This document shows positions 7,176 to 63,932 of a stretch of 64,000 nucleotides of DNA, one piece after another. Under the pieces are notes generated by a model. It was not told the origin of the DNA and did not search any database. It saw nothing but the letters and a program-made list of their open reading frames with translations. Both the position numbers and the translations under genes were made by a program. Origin of the DNA: a virus; IMG/VR virus record IMGVR_UViG_3300005337_000002, one strand, 5' to 3'. Each line of letters opens with the position of its first letter. Position 1 is the stretch's first letter.

Positions 7176-7215
7176 CGATTCGTCTCCTCTAGAGTGTGAT
7201 ACAAGCCTTCGATAT

Positions 7216-7294
7216 AAGTATAGACATTTTTTACAAGAATGTACATTCTTTTCTCTTTTTTTGCTTACATATTTACAATAAAATGTATATACTT
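7216..7294. promoter_or_regulatory. AT-rich divergent promoter/operator
   Basis: Inverted repeat AAGTATAGACATTTT (7216-7230) / AAAATGTATATACTT (7280-7294), one mismatch; perfect 16-bp palindrome AAGAATGTACATTCTT (7235-7250); -10 TATACT at 7288. Confidence 0.7.
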
Positions 7295-7380
7295 GAGACA
7301 TAAGAAAGGCGGAAGGAGCTACTTGCCTGCAGTACCTTCCGCCTCCGGTGTCCCGAACCCCTTGTGCAAGGAGTCAGACC

Positions 7381-12926: not shown

Positions 12927-13088
12927 CAGGACCCCTTTTCTTCTAATTCACTCTAGAGAGAAAATACTGAGAAGTATTCTACCATGATTCTGAACTAAAA
13001 TTCAATTTCGGTGTTTACATTCTGCATGCAATGCCTTATACTTAGTTCAAGTACGACGGAGCATAACAAACCAAGGGAAGGAATGATC
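12927..13088. promoter_or_regulatory. AT-rich divergent promoter
   Basis: TTTACA (13014)-17 nt-TATACT (13037) on the + strand. Confidence 0.6.
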
Positions 13089-17138: not shown

Positions 17139-17453
17139 CTAGCGTCCAACCAGTTCCTCAGCGGCGCCCGCATACTCGCTTTCGTCGTCCGCCCCTGCTT
17201 CGTAGACACGATCCTCTGTGCGCATCCCGAGCAGGATATCCGTCGAGACATGAAACGCATCAGCTAGGCGACGAATCATTTCATGATCAATGAATTTCCG
17301 TTCCCCGTGCAGAATTTTCCAAAGGAGTGTCGGGGAGAGTGAGGCACGATGTGCCAGCTCCGCATTCGTCCACCCTTTGAGGAGCTGTAACTCCTCAATT
17401 TTCTTCACAATATCCCATTTCTGTAATGTCCGCGCTGGATAGCGAGTCCGCAT
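17139..17453 (-). CDS. XRE-family HTH regulator
   Basis: KGWTNAELAHRASLSPTLLWKILHG...LADAFHVSTDILLG. Confidence 0.88.
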   Translation of the reverse strand: MRTRYPARTLQKWDIVKKIEELQLLKGWTNAELAHRASLSPTLLWKILHGERKFIDHEMIRRLADAFHVSTDILLGMRTEDRVYEAGADDESEYAGAAEELVGR

Positions 17454-17580
17454 CAGAACCTCCTTTCCTACTAGACTATAGACCATTTTTCTATTCTAGT
17501 AAAGTTTTTTATCTTTTCTACGATTAAAATGCTATTTTACTATATACATTTTTTCTATTATAGAGTATAATCTCTCTAGA
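17454..17580. promoter_or_regulatory. AT-rich divergent promoter for the left small-gene array
   Basis: TATACA (17543)-17 nt-TATAAT (17566). Confidence 0.65.
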
Positions 17581-17779
17581 TTAGGAAACAGACTGACAAC
17601 TGAAGAGCCCGGACCCGAGATAGGGTGTCAGACACCCAGGCGCAGTGGAGGCTAGAAGGGGACGGGCAGGCAGCAGGGCGCAACGAGGCACACCCCCCTC
17701 TACGCTGACCGAATCAAACGCCCCACTGAAGGAGCATCAAGCGCGAGAATCTCAGCGACGACGACCGATGAGAGACAAC

Positions 17780-17853
17780 GGTGTAATGCAACCAGCGGCG
17801 CAGATTCCCACGTAGCGCGACTCTCCATGGTGGAGAGGAATGCAGAGGACACC
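17780..17853 (+). ncRNA. Twister ribozyme, type P1 with P5 stem (slightly deviant L4)
   Basis: P1 GGUGU/ACACC, U^AA (17784/17785), P2 UGCA/UGCA, GAGG, L4 UCCCACGU (T1 CC:GG, T2 AC:GU), P4 GCGC/GCGC, P5 CUCUCCA/UGGAGAG. Confidence 0.72.
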
Positions 17854-17873
17854 CATCTGAGAAGGAATGCCCC

Positions 17874-18068
17874 ATGATTCGCATTGAAACGATCACGTAT
17901 GAAGCCGCCCATGGGCACAAACCCCGGCAATCCCGGCAGTATCGCACTAGTCCCTGGGCCTTCCAGATTGACCTGGACCCGACACCAGTATTCATCACAG
18001 CGTCGTATGCGGACGCGGTGAAACAGGCCAAGACCCGGGCGCAGTACAGTATTACCGTCCTCCCCTAA
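17874..18068 (+). CDS. Small hypothetical protein, first gene of the array
   Basis: AAGGA RBS; MIRIETITYEAAHGHKPR...WAF. Confidence 0.7.
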   Translation: MIRIETITYEAAHGHKPRQSRQYRTSPWAFQIDLDPTPVFITASYADAVKQAKTRAQYSITVLP

Positions 18069-18093
18069 GCGGACACACACAGGAGACAGCGTC

Positions 18094-18246
18094 ATGGCAA
18101 AGTTTGGACATGTGAAGGGGACGAAGAAAGAGACGAAGCGGGCGAGTGACTGGTACCGCCAGATTGAAGAAGCGACGATCCGCCAGGTGGAAGCGCAGTG
18201 GCAGGCCCGGCAGGTACAAGGTAGCACGCAACAGACAAAGGACTGA
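18094..18246 (+). CDS. 50-aa protein, paralog of 61367..61585 (below ORF-track size cutoff)
   Basis: AGGAG RBS; MAKFGHVKGTKKETKRASDWYRQIEEATIRQVE. Confidence 0.7.
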   Translation: MAKFGHVKGTKKETKRASDWYRQIEEATIRQVEAQWQARQVQGSTQQTKD

Positions 18247-18249
18247 GCC

Positions 18250-18660
18250 TTGACACCGACGATCCGAGACCGCGCCAAAAACGGCGGGCAGGGCATGCGA
18301 TGGATTCGCCATGAAAAGCGGTTAGCGTTGTACCTTAGGGACGGATTGGCCTGTGCCTATTGCGGCTATGGCATTGAGGACGGCGCACAGTTGACGCTCG
18401 ACCATCTCCATCCGCATAGTACGGGTGGCAGCAATGACGCCACGAACCTCGTCACCTGCTGCATGCGCTGTAATAGTAGTCGCGGCAATCGGGATTATCG
18501 GCAGTTTGCGGAAGCCGTTGCGGCCTATGTCAATCATGACGTGACCGCTGCGGCGATTCTTGCGCACATTGCGACGACTGTGCAGCGTCCGTTTGATGTG
18601 GCCGCGGCGAAGGCGCTCATTGCCCAGCGCGGCAGTTTTGCACAAGCCTTACACAACTAG
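18250..18660 (+). CDS. HNH endonuclease
   Basis: LRDGLACAYCG...LTLDHL...GGSN...NLVTCCMRCNSSRG. Confidence 0.88.
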   Translation: MTPTIRDRAKNGGQGMRWIRHEKRLALYLRDGLACAYCGYGIEDGAQLTLDHLHPHSTGGSNDATNLVTCCMRCNSSRGNRDYRQFAEAVAAYVNHDVTAAAILAHIATTVQRPFDVAAAKALIAQRGSFAQALHN

Positions 18661-19494
18661 TGGTCTCTTTTATCATGCGTTAACACTTGGAGGATTGATT
18701 CATGATGACGACAACGGGTGCTTTTCGTGTATCGACACATGATCTCGTGCGCACTGAGCGCGCTGAATGGTGTGCAGAGGCCAGTTCTTTACGATTTCCG
18801 GTTGGGCGCTGGCCGATGAAACTGCTCCTCACGGACGTCGAAGGCCCAGATATTCTCTTGCGGCATGTCCGGGCCGAACAGAGCGGGGCCGTGCATCTCT
18901 ATGAGAGTGTTGACACGGCGGCGACGATGATCCTGACCATATTTAATGACTAAGCCTCTTCGAGAAAGGACATAGGTATGCGGATTGAGATCATCTACGG
19001 ACAGTCACTGAACAACGGGGCGAAGGCTGTCCCCTGCATCGATTGTCGCACCGAGGAGCGTTCCATAGTGGATGCCGCCGCGGTCCTCGTGTTTGGCCGG
19101 ACGCGCATCCCGCTCTGCGTCCGACACCTCCTCCTCATGGAACGCAACCTCTGCGTGCAGTTAGCGCGGCTCTGTGGTGATCCATCGACCCAGCGGGCCT
19201 AAGCGTGCGCGGGCAGGTTCACAGGGACCTGTCCAGCCTGAGACAACAGGCACGTTCTCTCCGAGAGCGTGGGCGTCAGGGCTTTGCGTAGAAAGGATGT
19301 TCCGTATGGCGAAGTCTCACGGTATGCATGCCTGTCATCAGCGCTATCGCGTGATTGTGACCCTCGAACATCACGGCTGTTCCTGGCAGGCGAGTTACCT
19401 CAGTGACAGTATCCCTGATGGGGAAGCGATCACGGCGTTGGCGTCCGTGTGGTTTGTCGAAATCTTTGATCGCCAGACGCAGACGTTTGTGGAA

Positions 19495-19799
19495 TAACCC
19501 GCATGCCTTGGGACGAGGATCAGGGCACGCAAGGAAACGCATGAACTATAGTAACGAAATCCAGTGCCTCTTATTACAAGAACTCGGCGAGTTGCCCCAA
19601 GGCCGCTTGCGCAAGAAAGTGATGCAACTCGCGGCTGATCGTGGGGAGACCTTTGACAAGCACGCCTATCTTGGCGCTCTCGATGATCTCATCCACCTTC
19701 GTCGCATCAGGCCAGACGACGGAAACTGGGTGTTACTACGACGAAGCTCGTCATGAGCGCGCCAATCTGACCCTTGCGCCCTGGGATGAGGACCAGGGC
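19495..19799 (+). repeat. Two copies (19495-19526, 19768-19799) of an intergenic T(A/G)ACCC-N4-GCCYTGG-loop-YCAGGGC hairpin
   Basis: Same motif at 63060-63090 and 63269-63296. Confidence 0.7.
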
Positions 19800-19800
19800 G

Positions 19801-19854
19801 GGTGTCTGTGGCTGTGTGGCCACACTGAGGAGTCCATACCAAGGACGAAACACC
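19801..19854 (+). ncRNA. Hammerhead ribozyme, type III
   Basis: GGUGUC^UGUGGC-UGUGUG-GCCACA-CUGAGGA-GUCC-AUACCAA-GGAC-GAAA-CACC: canonical core and three perfect stems; cleavage after C19806. Confidence 0.93.
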
Positions 19855-21533
19855 GAGACCCGCACTGCCTGAGAAAGGACCCGCATGCATCATCCCTTTG
19901 TGGCCGCTACGCTGCTCACCGCGGCGCTCACGGTGGCCGCCGTGCCGCCGGGGCAGACCGCCCCGTTGACTCCGCTTCGCACCAGCCCCTTTGCTGACTT
20001 GTGTACCGCGACCACGTATACCGCAAGCGGCATCATGGCCTGTACCCATATGGTCAATCGCTATCGCCTCACGAAGCAGGGGCACTTCAGCGTCGAATCC
20101 TGTCAGACCGCGCGGGAGGCCCGCACTTGGTTTTTAGAGGCGCTGGACGATCTGGGCTACCGGATCTTTAACGCCGTGAGCGCGGTGGAATGCGCACTCA
20201 TCGGGGAGGCACGCCGCCCATGACCACGCACGACATGGCCCGCTGGTTAGAGCACGATGGCAAGGTCGTCACCATTGATACCTATAGGCATATCTTGAAA
20301 GTGAGCGTCTACGAGGCGATCTACCCCTACACACATATGGTCTGCCGCGTGATGGCCGAACCGCTCGACAAGCAGAGCGCATGGTATCGCGGCATCAAGC
20401 AGCAACTCGGCGATGACTGGTCGACCGATGTGCTGGGGAGCGATGCAGACGTCACCGTGAGTGTGATGCAGCAGGTCGAGTGGTAAAGCAAGCTAGGGGG
20501 AAGGCCGCCCTTCCCTCAGGAGATGTCTATGAATACAGTCATCTGCCCAGAATGTCGCTCAACCAATGTTCACCCTGACGACCCCACTGATCACAATATA
20601 GACTGTCACGATTGCGGTATATGGTGGGAGCCGGATCATCCCACCAATCAACTCGACTCCCCCTATTTTGGCAAGACGTTGCCCTCCAGAGAGGAATGAG
20701 ATCATGGCCGACATGACGGTCGCAACGACGATCCTAGAGCAACTCGGCGGACGGCGTTTTCTCGCCATGACCGGGGCGACGCATCTCGCCGCAGCGGGGA
20801 CTGCCCTCCTCTTTACGCTACCCTCGACGCCGCATTTTGTGTGCAAGGGCATCAATCTTGTGCGCGTGACGTTGACGCCGATGGACACGTATACCGTGGA
20901 GTTTTGGAAGCGCACACGACGAGGCGTCCAGGACGTTGCGCGCTGCGAGGATATTTACGCCGAGAACCTCCAAGAGTGCTTTACCCGCGAAACAGGTTTA
21001 GCGACACGACTGTAACTTTAAAGGAGCATCTCATGGTCCGTAAACCACTTGAGCACAGTATTCGTCCGTGGATAGAAAGCGACTTCGGCCACTCCGGCTT
21101 TTTGCTCACGATCCGTGAACCGTACACCGGCCAGCATGGTCAGGGCTTTTTCCTCGAGGAGGATGCAGCGGTGCGGGCGTGGCAGCACGCGCTGCACCGC
21201 TATAACAGTGGCGAGAATCCCCTCGAATATCTGGACACGCCCTTTGTCGCTCTTCCCTAACGCAGCACGGGCAGGATGGGATCCTGCCCTTCTTTCCTTC
21301 TGAGGAGCACCGCATGCTGTCACCTCTTATCGAGTATGCCCAGCAGTGGCACCGCGATCATGACAACAATTTTGCCCTCGCCTGCGCGGATGAGAACAGC
21401 ATCGAGGAATTAGAGGAGGCGCTCCAGCACGACGCGTACGGGTGCGATATTGCACTGTGGCATCTCGCCGGCGCCGAGGAATGGCGTGCGGGGGTGCAAG
21501 CCGCACTGGCCGAACTCCGCGTCACTGACGCCT

Positions 21534-21607
21534 AAATGCAGAGTGCGCCGGGGGAGCCCGGCGTAATGCAGCTCCTAGCGTAGGGCTGGGACTCGTCACA
21601 AGCCGAG
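21534..21607 (+). ncRNA. Twister ribozyme, P5-type permutation
   Basis: AAAUGCA-GAGU-GCGCCGGG(GGAG)CCCGGCG-U^AA-UGCA-GC-UCCUAG..CUGGGA-CUCG-UCACAAGC-CGAG; T1 AC:GU, T2 GC:GC; cleavage 21564/21565. Confidence 0.9.
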
Positions 21608-22692
21608 ATACGTAGAGAGGAGGTGCCCACGACCTACTAATCTGACACGTTTTAGTAGATGGTTGACATGTCGTTGCTGACACGAGGAGAAGGACGGTGT
21701 GATGGGCAAGAAACGCTATGTGAGTCGCTGCGCCTGTGGCGAAGTCGCCATGCGCTACCGTGAACCGCATCATGGCGGGCTGCATTTTTCGGAGGGCCGC
21801 TGTCCCTCCTGCCAGACTATGCGCGTCTTTCATCTCGTCTTTCCCCCAGACACGCCACGGAATAGAGCGAAGGCGTCACTGTATGAGCGGGGACACCGCA
21901 CTTACTAATCATCAGAAGGAGATGCTGATGGAGGACCAGCTTTCCCTCTTCGGCTCTCCCGCAGAGCCCGAGGGCATTGAGTATGATCGGGACTTCATTC
22001 TCACGAACCCCATTCCTGCCTTCTGTGCACGGGGCGGCTCTTCCCATTGTCGGCAGACGCAACAGCACCAGACCTCTGAGAGGATCCATGCTCCCTCGCT
22101 GCGCAACGTACACTGCTTTTGGTGCTGGGGACCGATGCGCCCGCTCAATCCTGTTACCTATCGTGCGCGACTCGCAACCCTCTGGCAGCATGTCGTGCCT
22201 CAGTCATCCACCTCATAGCGAAGGAGAAGCCTATGCAAACCCTTGTAGGGCATACGTCGAAAACCACGGCGTATGTCTACGATGAGATCGATGCGGTCAC
22301 TGGCGCCCGCCGCCAGCGACGAGCCTGGCTCGAATACAATCCAACCCGGGGCTATCGGATGGTGACCGAGGTCGCCAATCCTCGGAAGCGCGGCGTCCCG
22401 TGGCGCCGCCTGCCGCGTCGAGATGAACCCTACCACGACCTCGCGGTACTGGTTGTCGATGACGCTGGCCACGTGCACCTCAGTGCCTTGGAGGTCCCGC
22501 TCACGAAGAGCATTGTCGAGATTGATGCCTGGGCGACGCTGCATGCCGCTGGATTGCAAGGTGAGCATGATCAACTGCTGCTGGCAGCGTATCGGACGTA
22601 TGCACGCATGCGCGAGGCCCAACAGCAGGCGACCACATCTACTGTCTAGATGGTACAACCCTTTGGGTTGGCATGGATAAGGAGAGCGAACG

Positions 22693-23109
22693 ATGGGCAA
22701 ACGTCTTGAAAGCCTGCTCGACGCCTATACCGCCAAGCGTCAGGAATACGACGCGTTCCAGCTGCACTGTGCCGCGCAGACCGCCGAGATCCTCGCCGCC
22801 ATCCCTGTCGAGTTGCGTGAGGCCTTAGCAAAAGTTGATGCCGCCCGTGACGCTGGGGCACGTCAGTTCCAGGCCGATATTGATGCCCTCGCGGCCACGC
22901 TCAAGTCTGCGGTGGGTGCGGCGGGACATGCCGTCAAAGGGACGGACTACCAGGTCGTCTATAGTCGTGGGCGGGTCAGCTGGGATACGCGGGCGCTGGA
23001 AGGGTACGCCGCTGCGCATGAGGAACTGTATCAGTTTCGCCTGGAAAGCGAACCGACCGTGAGTATTCGCGCCGTTGCGAAGCAACCCCATTATACAGAG
23101 CAGAGGTAG
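22693..23109 (+). CDS. Coiled-coil hypothetical protein
   Basis: AAGGAG RBS; RGRVSWDTRALEGYAAAH...EPTVSIR. Confidence 0.7.
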   Translation: MGKRLESLLDAYTAKRQEYDAFQLHCAAQTAEILAAIPVELREALAKVDAARDAGARQFQADIDALAATLKSAVGAAGHAVKGTDYQVVYSRGRVSWDTRALEGYAAAHEELYQFRLESEPTVSIRAVAKQPHYTEQR

Positions 23110-23115
23110 CGTTGT

Positions 23116-23334
23116 ATGGCAAATAGTCAATGTTTGCGCGGTATGCGCTGCCCGACATGTGGCAGCGTCGAACCGTTTCGTATTGAAGTCATGACGACAG
23201 TGGTTGTTTGGGATGCCGAAACTGAACCCCTCGATCCTCGGGCCACACCTACATGGGACGCTTCGAGTTACTGTAAATGTATGCAGTGCGACATGGAAGG
23301 CTTAGTCTGTGACTTTCGTATCGAGAACACCTAG
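23116..23334 (+). CDS. Zn-ribbon protein
   Basis: CPTCG...CMQC. Confidence 0.7.
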   Translation: MANSQCLRGMRCPTCGSVEPFRIEVMTTVVVWDAETEPLDPRATPTWDASSYCKCMQCDMEGLVCDFRIENT

Positions 23335-23344
23335 GAGACACACT

Positions 23345-23785
23345 ATGGCTGCACGTACCACGTCCCGCCGACGCATGACCCCCGAGCAACAAACCGCCTT
23401 TGAGGCCCGCCGCGACCAGATGCAAACCCTTGCCAAGACCATTGCCGCCATGAGTGGCGCCGACCGGCAGGCCCTGGCAGCGTCGGTGGGCACGATCCTC
23501 ACCTGCGAGCAGCGCCCGCTCAGCCCGCACAATACCTGTATGCTCGCGCACCAGCGCCCGGATGCCACGGTCGTGGGCGGGTTTCAACAATGGAAACGGC
23601 TGGGGCGGGCCGTCCGCAAGGGCGAGAAGGGGAGTTATATCTGGGTGCCGCTGGCCGCGGGTACGCAAGAGCCCGGCCCCGAGGGGGAAGAGGACGCGGC
23701 GACACGGCAGCGTTTTCGCCTCGTGGCCGTGTTCGATGTCAGTCAAACCGACGAAGACACACAGGAGGAGTCCCATGGGGCATGA
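23345..23785 (+). CDS. ArdC-like N-terminal ssDNA-binding domain protein
   Basis: LSPHNTCML.HQRPDATVVGGFQQWKRLGRAVRKGEKG...VFDVSQT; no C-terminal metalloprotease domain. Confidence 0.85.
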   Translation: MAARTTSRRRMTPEQQTAFEARRDQMQTLAKTIAAMSGADRQALAASVGTILTCEQRPLSPHNTCMLAHQRPDATVVGGFQQWKRLGRAVRKGEKGSYIWVPLAAGTQEPGPEGEEDAATRQRFRLVAVFDVSQTDEDTQEESHGA

Positions 23786-25333
23786 CATGACCTTTGACCG
23801 CACGACCGCCGCGAAAGGGCGCAATGGCTGGTTTATCCTTGACCACGGGGATGTCGTGGTCGGGCAGGATGCGAGTTGGCTTGAGTTATGCTCGAAGCGC
23901 GTCGGAAGCGCTGCTCCTATTAGCGTGCGCTTTGCCCATCCGGCAGATATGCACCAGTTGGGCGCAGCGTTGCTCACGGCTGCTGCGCAATGGGGAGCCC
24001 TGCGCAACCCGTCAAGCGCTCCCCAGATGGCGCCGTGCTCGCCTTCTCCCTGTCCGCAATGTGGCGGGAAGGACTTGTGGATCCGCGTCACGCAGCGCGC
24101 CGAGCAGAAAATTACGCTGTATGGCCCTCGTGTCGGGGACTATCGCTACGACGTCAGCCACGAGGATGTGCAGGATACGACCTATCACGCCGCGACCTGT
24201 CGTGCCTGTGCGTATGTCTGGACACTTGAACAGGCATCGCCCTCACAAGGAGATCACTAGATCATGACGCACAAGGAACGCGCCTGGCAGATTCTTGAAG
24301 AGGCCTTGCAGCAGAGTACACAGCCCGACCAGCACCGCCCAGACGATCACGAGGCCCTCTTGGCAACCGTGGTTGAGCAGTACATTGAGGATGAGGGCAT
24401 CAGTCTTTTCGTGACGTACCCAGGACTACATGAGGTGTTAAGTCTCATCTTTGCCGCAGAGATTCAGGAGGAGCGGCAGCGAGAGATGGAAGAAGAAACG
24501 CTAGAGTATATACACACTGAGGAGCATGCCTAATGGCACAGAGCAAGATCACCCTTGACCAAATTACTGAGGCGATTAAGTCCGGTGAATATCTGGGCTT
24601 TTGTCTCGCCTGCGGGGCGATGCAGGATGGTGTCGAGCCGGATGCCCGCCGCTATGTCTGTGATGCCTGTAACGAGCCGCGCGTCTACGGTGCGGAAGAA
24701 TGTTTACTCATGGTGATGGGCTAGGAGGAACGATGTCGCAACCAGACAAGCTCGAACTGACGAGTGAGCCGACATTAACGCTGGAGCAGGATGCCTTACT
24801 GCGGAAACTCTATCGTCGTGGCGGGATCGTCGTATCCGCTGACGATCACCATATTCTGCATGCCCTCGTGCGGGCGGGGTGGGTTGGTAAACGCTCGCCC
24901 GCACGTATGGGACAGCAGGTCACGCACTTCGTCACGCTGAAGGGCGCGCGCTACTGTGCCCAAGGCAGCATAACGATGCGTGCACCACTTCTGGAAATCG
25001 TAGACGCCGCGCATGCGGCCCATCATGATCCGACGCGGCCGTGCGAGCGGGACTGTCCGCTCTGTCAGGTCGAACGGGCTGAGCAGCATGAGGAGTATAG
25101 CTAAGATGCAGTGTGCACACTGTGGAGGACAGACATTTGAGGTCGGTGGTCCGATCACGATTTGGCGGGACCAGACCATTCGATTTACGGATGCTCTCGG
25201 CAATTATACCGTTGAGCATGATGAGCTTGGCGAGACGACGGAGACGCATGATTGGGAGGAGGCGCGCTGTGCAGACTGTGGGCACGCTCTTCCCGTCGGC
25301 ATGCTCTTTGGATCCGCACCGCAGGACAGCTAG
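23775..25333 (+). other. Small hypothetical genes: 23775-24260, 24264-24533, 24533-24724, 24733-25104, 25106-25333
   Basis: Tightly coupled ORFs with RBSs; several CxxC...CxxC ribbons (e.g. GFCLACG...VEPDA...CDAC). Confidence 0.65.
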
Positions 25334-25429
25334 GAGCATGACTTCCTAGCTGTCCGCATATCACGAGTGCCGGACGCTTCTCACACGAGGGGCGTCCGGT
25401 GCCTGGCAAAGCACCAAGGAGTATACCCT

Positions 25430-26371
25430 ATGGCGAAAGCCCGCCAACCGATCCTCCGTCCCGGCGAGCATCATCTTCGTGAAATGGAGCGCCTGCTACG
25501 CCGTCTGGGCGAGCGTCATCAACTCTGGACCGCCTTTGAAGATTTCGTGGCGATGAGTGCGTTCAGCATCAGCAATGCCATTGATCCGCGCGCCTATACC
25601 GAGCGTGAAGCTGCTTATATGCAGATCGTCAAGCGCTATAGTACGGACGAGGTTCAGCAGTTTCCCATGATCTTCAGTCAACTCGTTCTGGCACTAGAGG
25701 CCGAGCCGCAGGATTATCTCGGACGTCTCTTTCACGCGCTGGAGTTACATAACAAGTGGCGGGGGCAATACTTCTCGCCGTGGAGTCTCTGTGTCTGTAT
25801 GGCGCAGATGACCGTGCATGATGCGAAGGAGCTTCTCGCGACCCAGCCGTTTCTCACGGCCTGTGAACCGTGCGCCGGCAGTGGCGCGATGGTCCTTGCA
25901 CTCGCAGAAGCCTTGCGCGACCACGAGATCAATTACCAACAGTATCTCCATGTTACCGCGATTGACATTGATCTTCGCTGCGTGCACATGGCGTACGTGC
26001 AAATGAGCCTGCTCCATATTCCAGGGATCGTCTTGCACGGGGATTCACTGCTGGGAGAGACCTGGAGTACGTGGGCAACCCCCGCGCATATCCTGGGCTT
26101 CTGGGCCGAGAAACTTGCTCATCAGCAACAGATTCCTGCACCAGAGACGTCAGCCGCTCTTCTGCCTGCCCCACTTGATACAACGGGTGAGGTTATCGAG
26201 TCGGTTGACGATATTCCGCTCCCAGTCATGACGACAACTGTTGCCTCAGTCACAGACGAGTTGCTCACCATGATCGCTATGGCGCGCCAGCCTATCCCTT
26301 TCCCTGCTGTCCCAGCGAAGCCATCACCCCCGCCTTCCGTCACAGTTGGAACCCAGCTCACACTGTGGTAG
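25430..26371 (+). CDS. N6-DNA-methylase-like protein (HsdM-like N-terminal half) lacking NPPY
   Basis: GQYFSP, EPCAGSGAM, AIDID, HGDSL; no motif IV follows. Confidence 0.8.
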   Translation: MAKARQPILRPGEHHLREMERLLRRLGERHQLWTAFEDFVAMSAFSISNAIDPRAYTEREAAYMQIVKRYSTDEVQQFPMIFSQLVLALEAEPQDYLGRLFHALELHNKWRGQYFSPWSLCVCMAQMTVHDAKELLATQPFLTACEPCAGSGAMVLALAEALRDHEINYQQYLHVTAIDIDLRCVHMAYVQMSLLHIPGIVLHGDSLLGETWSTWATPAHILGFWAEKLAHQQQIPAPETSAALLPAPLDTTGEVIESVDDIPLPVMTTTVASVTDELLTMIAMARQPIPFPAVPAKPSPPPSVTVGTQLTLW

Positions 26372-26464
26372 AGAATGAGAGGAGCCTAGGGCAAGGTGAA
26401 CGAGTATAACAGCCCAAAACAGAGCTAAGGGGGCGAAGGCTCTCTTGGCTCGAAAGGACTATCT

Positions 26465-27145
26465 ATGCACATCATTCGCCTCAAAAGTGGGGAAGAGGCG
26501 CTTGTAGATGATGAAGATTATCCACGATTGGCCCAATATACATGGTATGCGTCCCCGAGTGGGAAGATCCTCTATGCAAAACGCTATAGAGGGCATACCT
26601 CTATTTTTATGCATCGTGATATTCTGGGACTGGAGGGACCACGGATTGATCATTGGAATCACAATGGTCTGGACAATCAACGTGCCAACCTCCGGCGTTG
26701 TACTCCTGGACAAAATCTACAAAATCAACGCCCGAGTCGTCAGGGGACCTCACAATACAAGGGTGTGACTTGGCATACGCTCCGTCAGAAGTGGCGTGCA
26801 ACCATTCGGATTGACGGTCGTCAAACCCATTTAGGCCTCTATGAAAGTGAAGAAGATGCTGCCCACGTCTATGACGAAGCGGCATGCGAACATTTTGGAG
26901 ACTTTGCCTGTCTCAATTTCCCTGAGAACCGTGTAAATGTTCGCAGTACCCTTCAGCAATATGCAACCTACAAAGGCGTTGAGCACCCACGTCCTGGGCG
27001 CTGGCGCGCGCGTATCCGCGTCAAAGATAAGTTGCTCCATCTTGGAACTTTTGACAGTCCAGAAGATGCGGCACAGGCCTATGATGCTGCAGCCCGCTTT
27101 TATTATGGGGTACGCGCCCGCTGCAATTTTGATCTAGAAAAATAA
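26465..27145 (+). CDS. HNH-AP2 endonuclease with two AP2 domains
   Basis: ALVDDED, MHR, IDHWNHNGLDNQRANLR, and two YKGV...WRA...HLG...AA..YD segments. Confidence 0.92.
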   Translation: MHIIRLKSGEEALVDDEDYPRLAQYTWYASPSGKILYAKRYRGHTSIFMHRDILGLEGPRIDHWNHNGLDNQRANLRRCTPGQNLQNQRPSRQGTSQYKGVTWHTLRQKWRATIRIDGRQTHLGLYESEEDAAHVYDEAACEHFGDFACLNFPENRVNVRSTLQQYATYKGVEHPRPGRWRARIRVKDKLLHLGTFDSPEDAAQAYDAAARFYYGVRARCNFDLEK

Positions 27146-60451: not shown

Positions 60452-60739
60452 TTATGCGCTTTGCTCTGTATACTCCTCCTCATCAGACGGCTTGGGAAAA
60501 CGCCGCTTTTTAATCTTTTTGGGTGATGCAGGCTCTCCAATGAGCGCATCCAGCGTTACCCCCAGCGTTTTTGCCAGGCGCCCCGCAATATCCACGGCGA
60601 TCCGCGCCCCGTCCAGTCGCCCACATTCCAACGCACTAATCGTCGGCGGCGCCACACGTGCGCGCTTGGCGAGTTCACGCTGGAGCCACCCTCGCTGTTT
60701 CCGTAAGGCCCGCACCCGAGCCCCTACTGTATCCGGCAT
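60452..60739 (-). CDS. XRE-family HTH regulator (Cro-like position)
   Basis: VGARVRALRKQRGWLQRELAKRARV...LAKTLGVTLDALIG. Confidence 0.9.
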   Translation of the reverse strand: MPDTVGARVRALRKQRGWLQRELAKRARVAPPTISALECGRLDGARIAVDIAGRLAKTLGVTLDALIGEPASPKKIKKRRFPKPSDEEEYTEQSA

Positions 60740-60840
60740 AGCGATCCTCCTTTCACTGTCAGTATAAAGCATAGGGAAATTTTCTGCAATAAAAAATATC
60801 CTTGAATTTTACTACAATATTCTTTATACTCTTCCTTAGT
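60740..60840. promoter_or_regulatory. AT-rich divergent promoter for the right small-gene array
   Basis: TTGAAT (60802)-17 nt-TATACT (60825); inverted GTATAAAG/CTTTATAC. Confidence 0.7.
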
Positions 60841-61045
60841 ACGCCCCTGCTCCTTGATAGCCTCATACGCGACGATGTGACCGATGAACCGGAAGGGTAA
60901 GCTTCGGAGCACACACGGCTACCTATCTCGTCGCAGGAGCCTGCTTGCAGGGCAAGAGGCGTTTGGACTGCTCAGGATATGGGGGTAAGTCGGTGCGGCA
61001 TTGTGCAGAACTCTGGCGTCGACGCGTGTATAGCGAATGAGAGAC

Positions 61046-61099
61046 CTCTCGTCGGGGGACTACCCCTGTGAAGAGGGCTGTAACGCCCAGAAACGAGAG
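61046..61099 (+). ncRNA. Type III hammerhead-like RNA with variant core
   Basis: CUCUCGUC^GGGGG-ACUA-CCCCU-GUGAAGA-GGGC-UGUAAC-GCCC-A-GAAA-CGAGAG: three intact stems, core deviates. Confidence 0.6.
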
Positions 61100-61118: not shown

Positions 61119-63932
61119 ATGGCAGTCCAAGAATTAGTAACCCGCCTGGGTACGGCAGAATTTTGGCAGGACGGCGAGGGAAAAATCGTGCTCATCTATC
61201 GTGACGGTGACCAGGACAGTCCCGTGCGGGATCTCCTGTCGATCGCGCCAAGCTTTCGCACGAAACGCGAGAGTGCAGTGGAGCACCTATTCAGGGAACT
61301 CGTGCGGTTGAATCCACGGCTGAAGGGTGAGAAGGTCACGAGAGAAGGCAACTGAAGGAGACACCGATGAGCTATCATCGTGGCCATGTGCGCGGCCCCA
61401 AGCGCGAGCGGACACACAGTCAGGACTGGTACGCCCCCATTCAGGAGGCGATCATTGCGCGGCTGGAGCAGGAAGAAGCGGCGACGCTCGCAGCCCTCCT
61501 CGCTGACACCACCTATCCTGAGCCGCTCTACGAGGCGGAACGTGCGTGGCAAGAACAACGCGCTATAGAGGAGCATAACCGCTGAACCCCCGCCAGCGGC
61601 AAGAGCGGATGTGACAGCATGAAGGTATGAAGGGAATGCACCTATGAAAACTGCGCAAGAATGGCAGGCGTATCTCGTGAGCAAAGGGGTGGCTGATACC
61701 AGCGATTTCTTTGCAATACTCAAAGACCTGGAAGCGCGGGAGCGGGAGACAGAGCAGGTACGCAGGGATCTGTCCGCAAAGCTGACGATTACTGAAGATG
61801 AGATCACAACCTGGAATGCCACGCAAGCGCGGCCCGTAGGCTTTCGGCGGCTGCCTTGCTAAGCAAGGCGTGACATCGCCATCTTTACACCTAGCGTAAA
61901 GATGGAAAAACAGCCCCCCCAGAAAGGACAGACGCATGACGGATGACACTGCCTCCATCTTCAGCGCCCAACTCTGTGGCGCCATCGACAATCTCACTGA
62001 GGCCGTGCGAGAGGTTGCCGCCCAACTGTACCCGCTGGCGGCCCTGGTCGCGACGACGAAAGCACTCGATGAGCATCTCACTGCGCTGATCGAAACGACA
62101 CGGTCCCTGCGGACACTCGTGACGCTGGCAGATGACGTGCACACCATTGCGCAGAGGCGCTAACACATATACCGGGGGGGGGCATATGCCCCCTCTTCGT
62201 AGGAGGCGATTGTGGAGAGTGACGAGCGCACTTACTTGCTGCGGGTTGCGCTCGCAGCACAAACGTTGCTTGGGCGTTTGGACACGCTTACCACGCAGGA
62301 GTGCAGTGCAGGCGGCGACAAGCCTGAGCGTGAGGCCTTACGCACGGCATTCCGTGGGACACCCGCGCGGCACCATGAGGAGGAGACCTATGCCGACCCA
62401 CATCTGTGACAGCGGCACCCGCTTCCATTACAACAGCGATCTCTCGGGCGATGTCCTGGTCCAGGTGGGGCGCGCTGGGGTCACGACGCACCATCCGGTC
62501 GCGATTCCTGGCCACGATCTGCTGGCCTTTGTGGCAGAATACGTCCGCCGGCGCAAGATCAACCAATGGGAAGATGCCTCCACCGCGGAGCTTCTCGGGC
62601 TGCCTTCACTTTAGAGAAAGGGCCTATTCTATGTATTGCGCGCTGCGCTGGACCCGCCACAACAACCAACGTCCCAAGCTCGACTATCTCAGTGATATTG
62701 CCACGCTGCTGCGGCTGGCGTACGAAGCAGGGCTGGCCCAAGAAGAGATCGTGATCCATGAATACGTCAACAGTGAGATGTATGGCGCATCCTGCACGCC
62801 TCTTTTTGACTCAGAGCCCCAGGCCCGCACAGCATAAAAAGCCCACGCGACGCAGAGAAAGGAAGACCTGATGCGCACCGCCCATGACTTCCAGATGTAT
62901 CCCTGCGATAGTTGTGGCGAAGAGCTATGTCCTGTCTGTGGGATCTATCGCCTTGCAGGACAGCCAGAAGACTGTTGGCAATTCCACATGAGCATCTGTG
63001 CCAGTATCGCTGATCGGGAAGACACACAACGCATGATCGACCCTGACGCCGATTGGCTGTAACCCGCACGCCCTGGGATGGCCCCAGGGCATACCCTCAC
63101 ATGCAGGAGCAGCGTATGTATCGCATTCTCGTTGTGACCTTTAATGGCGCGATCCATTGGCACGCAAGTTATATGAGTGACAGCATCCCTGATACGCAAG
63201 CGATGGCATGCCTGCCTCATGTGTGGCAGGTCGATATTTGGGATACCTCGCAGCAACAATACGTGTTCTAACCCTGGCGCCCTGGTCCGCCAGGGCATGG
63301 AGCAGAACGATGCAGCAGGATCTTTTCCTCAATCTGTTAACCCTTGCGGCGGACAGTCCCGCCCAACTCCGCCGCTCGGATGTCTACCGCGTGGTGCGTG
63401 ACGCCGAAGATATGGGGTGTGCGTCAGCTTTCTGTGACTGGCTGGCGGCGCTGCGCCCTGACCTCCAGACAGAAATTACTGAGTGCTTCGAGGAGCTGAG
63501 CACCACGCACTAACCCCACCGGGGCCACCCGGCCCCCAGCAGGAGACAACGGATGAGCAACATGGAAATGGCCTGTCGGCTGCGCATCGCTGACGCCTAT
63601 ACCTGCGCCTGCGTCACCGTTGCTGGCCCCATACAAGCCAACCTCAAGTGGGCAATATTTTGGCGCTATGCCCGCGCCATTGGCGTCAGAGACATTCCAC
63701 TTCATGGTCGAGTCCACCTAGACTTCACCTAAACATACGAGAGACTACCCAACTCCAAGGAGGAGCGCCAATGGAGAGTTACATAGACATCACGACGAAG
63801 GACGGCTATGCAGCGAGAATAACTGGCGATGATGCTGCCGTGCAGAAAGTTGAGGAGCTACTGACGGCGCAAGGATGGCAATGGAATGAGCAAGTATTGA
63901 CCTTAGACGAAGGATTTTATCCCACAGACTAA
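61119..63932 (+). other. Second array of small genes: 61119-61355, 61367-61585, 61644-61862, 61936-62163, 62212-62409, 62390-62614, 62631-62837, 62871-63062, 63116-63271, 63310-63513, 63553-63732, 63771-63932
   Basis: Most have a purine-rich RBS; two are paralogs of genes in the 17.9-27 kb array. Confidence 0.7.
63060..63296 (+). repeat. Two more TAACCC-N4-GCCCTGG..CCAGGGC hairpins (63060-63090, 63269-63296)
   Basis: They bracket the 63116-63271 gene. Confidence 0.7.

Follow-up and report, generated by a model that had tools for sequence, protein, structure and literature searches.

Candidate self-cleaving RNAs along a predicted operon of a very large soil phage

Phages have been known since 2011 to carry groups of self-cleaving ribozymes among their genes, and the processing of phage polycistronic messages by such clusters, with no protein involved, is a published hypothesis (Perreault, 2011, PMC3088659; review PMC6765202). 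The locus described here is a further example of this arrangement, and neither a new system nor a new mechanism. It lies in a stretch of 64,000 nucleotides (nt) of a virus genome (IMG/VR record IMGVR_UViG_3300005337_000002), hereafter referred to as the window, in which an array of small genes (array 1) is preceded by a twister-like RNA and subdivided by a type III hammerhead and a type P5 twister (twister-P5), and a second array (array 2) is preceded by a hammerhead-like RNA (Table 1).

Tandem hammerheads of prophages cleave co-transcriptionally, and clusters of them were reported in Clostridium scindens, in Azorhizobium caulinodans and in Agrobacterium tumefaciens, the last being a trio that flanks ardA (Perreault, 2011). 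The traits of that arrangement, i.e., at least two ribozymes placed in intergenic regions of a phage, on the gene-sense strand and within a few kilobases, are all found in array 1. As in the prophage clusters, several sense-strand intergenic ribozymes sit among small and mostly unknown genes of one phage operon, an anti-restriction-type gene is nearby (here encoding an ArdC-N domain), and the proposed role is the cutting of the message into mRNAs for single genes or gene blocks. The window differs from these clusters in that twister and hammerhead are mixed, in that one element is located in the 5' untranslated region (UTR), and in being known from sequence alone.

A second precedent is HHphage of the haloviruses HF1 and HF2, where the mapped 5' end in HF2 is the hammerhead cleavage site, 13 nt before the first early open reading frame (ORF) (Perreault, 2011). 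Both there and here, an early polycistronic transcript has a ribozyme on the 5' side of the start codon of its first ORF, at a distance of 13-20 nt, but the hosts belong to different domains and the leader element is here twister-like or, in array 2, a hammerhead with a damaged core. Twisters and hammerheads are moreover described as sharing their genomic neighbourhoods, in those passages of the review that relay the work of Roth (2014) and Weinberg (2015) (via PMC6765202). Nothing essential differs in the present locus, which adds an instance from a very large soil phage with conjugation genes. The occurrence of unrelated self-cleaving classes in the same kind of location suggests that the cut matters, and not the fold, and corresponds to the interchangeable classes put forward in the first-pass annotation.

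Two engineered or mobile systems also invite comparison. RiboJ, which combines a satellite-RNA hammerhead with a hairpin, removes the promoter-proximal leader and gives mRNAs a uniform 5' end. The exchange of the whole repressor, promoter and leader module in a close relative of array 1 (see below) fits such an insulator, except that the elements are here natural and that their function is one that we infer. As for plasmids, the anti-defence islands of their leading regions were reportedly found by Samuel et al. in 2024 to adjoin oriT on the first-entering side and to use single-strand promoters. Both arrays of the window have ordinary double-strand sigma-70-like promoters and divergent repressors, and leading-region status is unsupported, while an anti-defence role has no support beyond one ArdC-N domain protein and a methylase-like motif read by eye.

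Ribozyme motifs of array 1

An operon split by three self-cleaving RNAs is the best explanation of array 1 as a whole, and one that we hold to be reasonably probable. Array 1 would be an operon of small accessory genes, presumably early, transcribed rightwards from a sigma-70-like promoter at about 17.57 kb that diverges from an XRE-type repressor gene. Its primary transcript would contain three cis-acting self-cleaving RNAs, with cuts at 17784/17785, 19806/19807 and 21564/21565, and their cleavage, which needs no protein, would release a leader of about 207 nt and leave one mRNA per gene block, three in all. At the head of every such mRNA there would be a 5'-OH and the folded body of a ribozyme, 20 to 95 nt before the next start codon. 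The ribozyme would be functionally part of the downstream block, to which it would give a fixed and structured 5' end whatever the promoter, leader or gene that precedes it. Cleavage in vivo, its effect on stability or translation and its timing are what we infer. The first-pass annotation of the window had proposed such processing by interchangeable ribozyme classes, and had placed the motifs on the sense strand and in intergenic regions. The latter holds for all four of them, and the former is sustained insofar as sense-strand motifs of two bona fide classes divide one operon, but two of the four are off-consensus.

The twister-P5 is the one ribozyme retrieved by Rfam at gathering thresholds in the window and in the whole genome (plus strand), with a score of 50.7 bits against model RF02684 (clan CL00120), above the gathering score of 37.6. 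It confirms the second, differently permuted twister that had been annotated at 21534. It begins one base past the stop codon of gene 21314-21535, and its predicted cut falls between U21564 and A21565. Both pseudoknots, as well as the catalytic A (+1) and G, can be read from its sequence: the first pseudoknot pairs UAAUGCA-GC with the GC of CAAGC, and the second pairs the GUG found after GA with the CAC of loop L4, a compensated form of the consensus GGG/CCC. As in the consensus, G-A follows stem P2.

The hammerhead, located between genes 19403-19756 and 19885-20223, was found at a permissive Rfam threshold and scores 37.1 bits against RF00008 (E 1.9e-5 in a 5.5-kb search, 1.2e-7 per genome). 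Its core is canonical throughout (CUGAgGA...GAAA, with GUC ahead of the cut), the pairs 10.1-11.1, 1.1-2.1 and 15.1-16.1 are all intact, and stems I and II are hairpins of 7 and 4 bp, respectively. The core contacts comprise CUGAGGA, GAA, A19850-U19805, C19806, after which the cut is predicted, U19807-A19824 and G19832-C19846. This is the only canonical hammerhead of the genome, and the one that had been called as such at 19801. Judged by their sequence, the hammerhead and the twister-P5 are both genuine members of self-cleaving classes.

The first motif of the array, which ends 20 nt before the ATG at 17874, had also been annotated as a twister (17780). Here the twister fold, the catalytic bases and a descriptor speak for the call, which no Rfam twister model supports. 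Its minimum free energy (MFE) fold gives P1, P2, P4 and P5 exactly like a P1-type twister, with a predicted cut at U17784/A17785. Mapped onto the Osa-1-4 numbering of Kobori and Yokobayashi, it keeps A1 and A2 past the cut, as well as the G-A-G-G after P2 (general-base G, A46 and G48). The first pseudoknot (PK1) can form through A17791-U17813 and C17792-G17812. In the second (PK2), two C of loop L4 can pair with G17847 and G17848, and the remaining contact is an A.C end mismatch or, if the register is shifted, U-A with A.C for A.A. A strict descriptor (4-bp P1, N-AA, 4-bp Watson-Crick P2, 2-bp pseudoknot, 4-bp P4, CCA-N in L4, and GAGG after P2) matched this site only in the genome (141.6 kb, both strands) and had no match in 60 dinucleotide shuffles, a result whose significance is overstated since the descriptor was written after the element had been seen. 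A loose twister descriptor, which gave 13 matches in the genome, was dropped as uninformative.

Among the natural twister candidates tested, about 94% are active, and activity withstands many imperfections, including defects in P1, P2, P4 and L4 ends; an A-to-C change at the A.A contact is harmless and position N-1 accepts any base, whereas combined pseudoknot defects reduce activity (McKinley, 2024, PMC11662667). Compared with the imperfect twisters of McKinley (2024) and of Kobori and Yokobayashi (2016, PMC5113685), the deviations of the leader element are mostly of tolerated kinds (insertions at the ends of L4, any base at N-1, replaced pseudoknot pairs), but it combines several of them, one beside the conserved L4 adenines, and is below Rfam detection. 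Natural twisters with three imperfect elements are rare and less active (PMC11662667; PMC5113685). The element is probably a non-consensus twister, and we lean towards the view that it cleaves.

The two twisters share the P2 helix UGCA/UGCA (17787-17790/17841-17844; 21537-21540/21567-21570), and the strings UAAUGCA and UGCAGAG are common to both despite their circular permutation, which suggests a common origin within the phage lineage.

Table 1. Positions of the predicted RNA elements, promoters and genes of the two arrays in the window.
Feature	Position	Strand	Basis or sequence
Array 1, divergent XRE-type helix-turn-helix (HTH) repressor	17139..17486	-	Pfam
Array 1, sigma-70-like promoter (TATACA-17-TATAAT)	17543..17571	+	consensus scan, 10/12 matches
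Array 1, leader of ~207 nt that the first element would cut off	17578..17784	+	from promoter position and predicted cut
Twister-like RNA, P1-type with closed P5	17780..17853	+	MFE fold and strict descriptor
P1 of the twister-like RNA	17780-83/17850-53		GGUG/CACC
P2 of the twister-like RNA	17787-90/17841-44		UGCA/UGCA
P4 of the twister-like RNA	17798-801/17815-18		GCGC/GCGC
P5 of the twister-like RNA	17821-27/17831-37		7-bp hairpin
Gene block A, small ORFs and HNH endonuclease (18250-18660)	17874..19756	+	ORF list
Type III hammerhead ribozyme	19799..19856	+	Rfam RF00008 below gathering score; canonical core
Gene block B, six small ORFs	19885..21535	+	ORF list
Twister ribozyme, type P5, with P1 and P3 hairpins	21537..21607	+	Rfam RF02684
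94-nt 5' UTR, from twister-P5 to next gene (ATG 21702)	21608..21701	+	conservation vs L013
Gene block C	21702..27145	+	ORF list
Array 2, divergent HTH repressor	60452..60772	-	ORF; 27% identity to L013 repressor, E 4e-7
Array 2, sigma-70-like promoter (TTGAAT-17-TATACT)	60802..60830	+	consensus scan; AT-rich island 60737-60867
Hammerhead-like three-way junction, variant core (GUGAAGA ... A-GAAA)	61046..61099	+	fold and relaxed descriptor
Array 2, first gene, 78 aa	61119..61355	+	ORF; GAAGGAG ribosome-binding site 7 nt upstream

Conservation in the closest relative

The 64-aa first gene of array 1 (ATG 17874) has homologues at 67-80% identity. Eight metagenome loci with such homologues were retrieved and ribozymes were found only in the closest of them, L013, a soil metagenome locus whose first-gene protein is 94% identical to that of the window. 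Comparative support thus comes from this single close relative. L013 harbors all three elements of array 1 in unchanged order. The sequences themselves show which motifs are present, to what class they belong, on which strand and where they lie, and how they are conserved. The hammerhead is identical in sequence and is found inside an unbroken block of 97% identity. The twister-P5, which scores 42.7 bits in L013, begins one base past a stop codon in both genomes, and the gene upstream of it differs. Its eight differences between the two genomes are confined to the loops of P1 and P3 and to N-1; since about 13 of the 71 positions are unconstrained, we estimate that such a placement would occur by chance with a probability of about 1e-7.

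The twister-like element differs from its counterpart in L013 in both bases of the outermost pair of P1 (G-C to U.G), at N-1 (U to G), at one linker base, at two bases of the P5 loop and at one end of P2 (A-U to A.G). Six of these seven substitutions are neutral or compensatory, and the pseudoknots, L4 and the catalytic bases are untouched. In both twisters, N-1 is U in the window and G in L013. Nucleotide homology between the window and L013 sets in at 17781, the second base of the 5' strand of P1, and upstream of this point the repressor, promoter and leader of L013 (a leader of about 218 nt) are unrelated to those of array 1. Such a homology breakpoint fits a real processing boundary. The ribozymes move together with the downstream genes, and selection acts on their fold.

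Two regions around the twister-P5 are also to be mentioned. A one-gene cassette of 275 bp (21261-21535), present in the window and absent in L013, is inserted between a stop codon and the twister-P5; its 73-aa gene is accompanied by a ribosome-binding site and by a terminator-like hairpin (21269-21289), and CC-TAA is found at both ends. Downstream of the ribozyme, the 94-nt UTR presents 2 differences from L013, the neighbouring blocks being 84-92% identical. Within this UTR, CTGACACG occurs twice, next to a TTGACA hexamer and a 7-bp hairpin (CTACTAA...TTAGTAG) found in the same stretch, and a role as regulatory RNA or operator is possible.

Array 2 and competing explanations

At the equivalent place of array 2 lies an element that appears to derive from a hammerhead and whose damaged core makes little or no cleavage probable. 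The first-pass annotation had described it as a hammerhead-like RNA in the position of the first twister, both being located about 20 nt before the first ATG of their array. The position is correct, as it ends 19 nt before the ATG at 61119, and so is the designation, provided that it is taken as hammerhead-like only. The RNA folds as a type III junction (stem III CUCUCGU/ACGAGAG, C, stem I hairpin, 7-nt strand, stem II hairpin, AGAA-A), in which GUC ahead of the cut, A15.1-U16.1 and a closed 10.1-11.1 pair are present. Its 7-nt strand GUGAAGA, compared to the consensus CUGANGA, has a G at core position 3 or, in an alternative register, U3 and an inserted G followed by UGAAGA. An additional A is found ahead of G12, and the cut after C61053 is notional. 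No Rfam hammerhead model matched it at E<=10. When the type III descriptor was relaxed, by leaving position 3 open and allowing one extra base to be inserted, it retrieved only this element and the true hammerhead in the genome, with no match in 60 shuffles, and scans of the genome for type I and II hammerhead-like RNAs gave nothing. In the active hammerhead fold, C3 and G8 pair, and they covary in nature. The element is clearly hammerhead-derived by its architecture and probably impaired, cutting poorly or not at all; that it cleaves is doubtful.

The homology of the two arrays, which had been assumed, is confirmed for two paralogous gene pairs at 36-42% identity, whereas the first genes are unrelated, as are the leaders. 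An alignment of the leaders of array 1, array 2 and L013 revealed no shared structure or sequence beyond the twister-like element. A 9-mer, ATGAGAGAC, directly precedes both leader elements of the window (17768-17777; 61037-61045) and a second one, GACCGATGA, is common to both leaders at differing distances; both are absent in L013, and they may represent chance or the trace of a common origin.

Several points weigh against a message of array 1 that would be cut at three sites. The search with Infernal and Rfam that had been proposed as a check placed the twister-P5 above its cut-off and the hammerhead below its gathering score (37.1 vs 48.5 bits), and returned no twister or hammerhead match for the two leader elements. 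For the twister-like element this applies to every Rfam twister model, with 141 nt searched at E<=10, and RF03160 run across the whole genome found only the twister at 21.5 kb. In this element, PK1 consists of A-U and C-G where the consensus has G-C and C-G, and one end of PK2 departs from the consensus as well. Its L4 loop is AGAUUCCCACGUA, of 13 nt, compared to UCCCAAGC, of 8 nt, in the consensus, with 3-4 extra bases on the 5' side, 1 extra on the 3' side, and a C that either replaces a conserved A or is inserted. Position G13 is intolerant to single substitutions, and rescue was reported for the pair C14-G30 only, and not for G13-C31 to A-U (Kobori, 2016). In twisters with several imperfect core elements, the mean fraction cleaved is 0.15-0.58. 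Further downstream, the transcript may already be interrupted at the terminator-like hairpin of the inserted cassette. What becomes of a 5'-OH RNA also depends on the host: in Bacillus subtilis, the 5'-OH product of glmS ribozyme cleavage was reportedly found by Collins in 2007 to be degraded faster. Finally, in distant homologues of the first gene (L017-L019), the place immediately in front of the ribosome-binding site is taken by a perfect GC-rich hairpin, with no ribozyme, indicating that the cut is not essential to the gene. This hairpin may be a site of protein-dependent processing or stabilisation doing the same job.

Some of these points would also fit an explanation that we regard as possible but rather unlikely, namely that only the two canonical motifs cleave, the leader elements of both arrays being decayed ribozymes that are kept or tolerated as stable 5' UTR folds and whose role, with no cut made, would be to shield the mRNA or to give the ribosome-binding site its context. 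Neither leader element is detected by Rfam, and the GC hairpin at the equivalent spot in distant homologues suggests that structure without cleavage is enough there. In array 2, no pair is possible between G3 and G8 and an A is inserted ahead of G12, and some hammerhead variants with highly disruptive core changes are inactive (Perreault, 2011). However, the twister-like element retains all the catalytic bases, neither pseudoknot is lost, a compensating A-U maintaining one of them, and its substitutions compared to L013 respect the twister model. The high proportion of active molecules among the natural twister candidates tested (McKinley, 2024) and the onset of homology to L013 one base into P1 also argue against mere decay.

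It is very unlikely, on the other hand, that both off-consensus leader elements are active, as natural insulator ribozymes that would cut exchangeable regulatory leaders of about 210 nt off the early mRNA. Should this be true, the twister with an enlarged L4 and an A-U in PK1, as well as the hammerhead with G3 and an inserted A, would be active variants, and the released leaders, with their cyclic-phosphate ends, might themselves act as small RNAs. For circular mRNAs made from ribozyme-bounded blocks, an idea that was also considered, the sequence offers no indication. Scarcely credible, lastly, is a role of the ribozymes in marking or promoting the modular exchange of cassettes between related phages, or their being remnants of HNH-linked mobile elements, rather than a role in expression: the window and L013 are indeed mosaic, with the regulatory module swapped at the 5' edge of the first element and the 275-bp cassette, absent in L013, placed right before the twister-P5, and block A encodes an HNH endonuclease, but this support amounts to two junctions in one genome pair, the mosaic junctions at 18660-18970 and 20487-20687 are away from the ribozymes, the hammerhead is within its unbroken block, and the selection seen in loops versus stems shows that the RNA fold is maintained, which a role at the DNA level would not need.

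Gene content, genome setting and significance

The genes of array 1 are all on the plus strand and form three blocks set apart by the hammerhead and the twister-P5. The repressor gene starts beside an AT-rich promoter island (17447-17614), and its product matches HTH_31, HTH_19 and HTH_3 each just below the cut-off (best HTH_31, 26.8 vs 27 bits, E 6.7e-6). The predicted promoter lies in the lowest-GC island of the genome, with a predicted transcription start near 17578, and the leader, whose extent follows from the promoter position and the predicted cut, has no coding signal. Recognisable families in the blocks are restricted to the HNH endonuclease (Pfam PF14279, E 4e-12; PF01844, E 1e-11) and to the ArdC-N domain protein (23309-23785; Pfam ArdcN, 35 bits vs a cut-off of 22.6). 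The ORFs of block B have no Pfam family above cut-off, and in block C the translations show by eye a methylase-like motif (25367-26371) and an HNH/AP2-like protein (26465-27145). Gene 19885-20223, the first after the hammerhead, encodes a signal-peptide-like N-terminus (MHHPFVAATLLTAALTVAAVPPGQTAP) and its product, an early-block protein, may be exported.

Array 2 repeats the layout of array 1, with a divergent repressor, a promoter and a leader that measures about 216 nt. Homologues of its first gene are known at 99% and 82% identity, and its intergenic folds are plain hairpins only. Two other AT-rich promoter islands of the window (7178-7329 and 12928-13054), both part of repressor-promoter units, were read, and have short leaders without ribozyme-like RNA.

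The window corresponds to the minus strand of bases 14842-78841 of one virus record of 141,598 bp, which presents direct terminal repeats, is rated complete and encodes a terminase-like protein. Conjugation-type genes are also found in this record (VirB4/TraC-like, TraU, TraG_N and a coupling protein), i.e., type IV secretion genes are carried by the 141.6-kb phage. The sole tRNA gene of the genome is located outside the window (G000 contig bases 84457-84532; L005:5257-5332); ARAGORN calls it a tRNA-Asn with the unusual anticodon ATT, and its acceptor stem is imperfect in the Rfam alignment.

A blastn search of positions 17400-22000 against the phage collection gave no match, and protein searches of IMG/VR retrieved no relatives with any of the following queries, namely the first gene of either array and the two paralogue alignments. 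The HNH gene, used as a protein query against IMG/VR, led only to four distant loci (L009-L012). Similarly, scans of viral contigs and genome contigs for the exact patterns of the variant hammerhead core and of the variant twister loop retrieved nothing, and a protein scan of the genome contigs gave a single distant match, at 37% identity.

The locus represents a compact test case for the ribozyme clusters of phages, whose biological purpose remains unproven, as it gathers three elements of graded quality on one repressor-controlled transcript. The swap of promoter and leader in L013 supports the view that such elements would provide downstream genes with a fixed 5' end regardless of the upstream sequence. 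With the twister-like and the hammerhead-like RNA, the phage also offers two natural off-consensus cores, whose activity or lack of it would help to refine the descriptors with which such ribozymes are searched.

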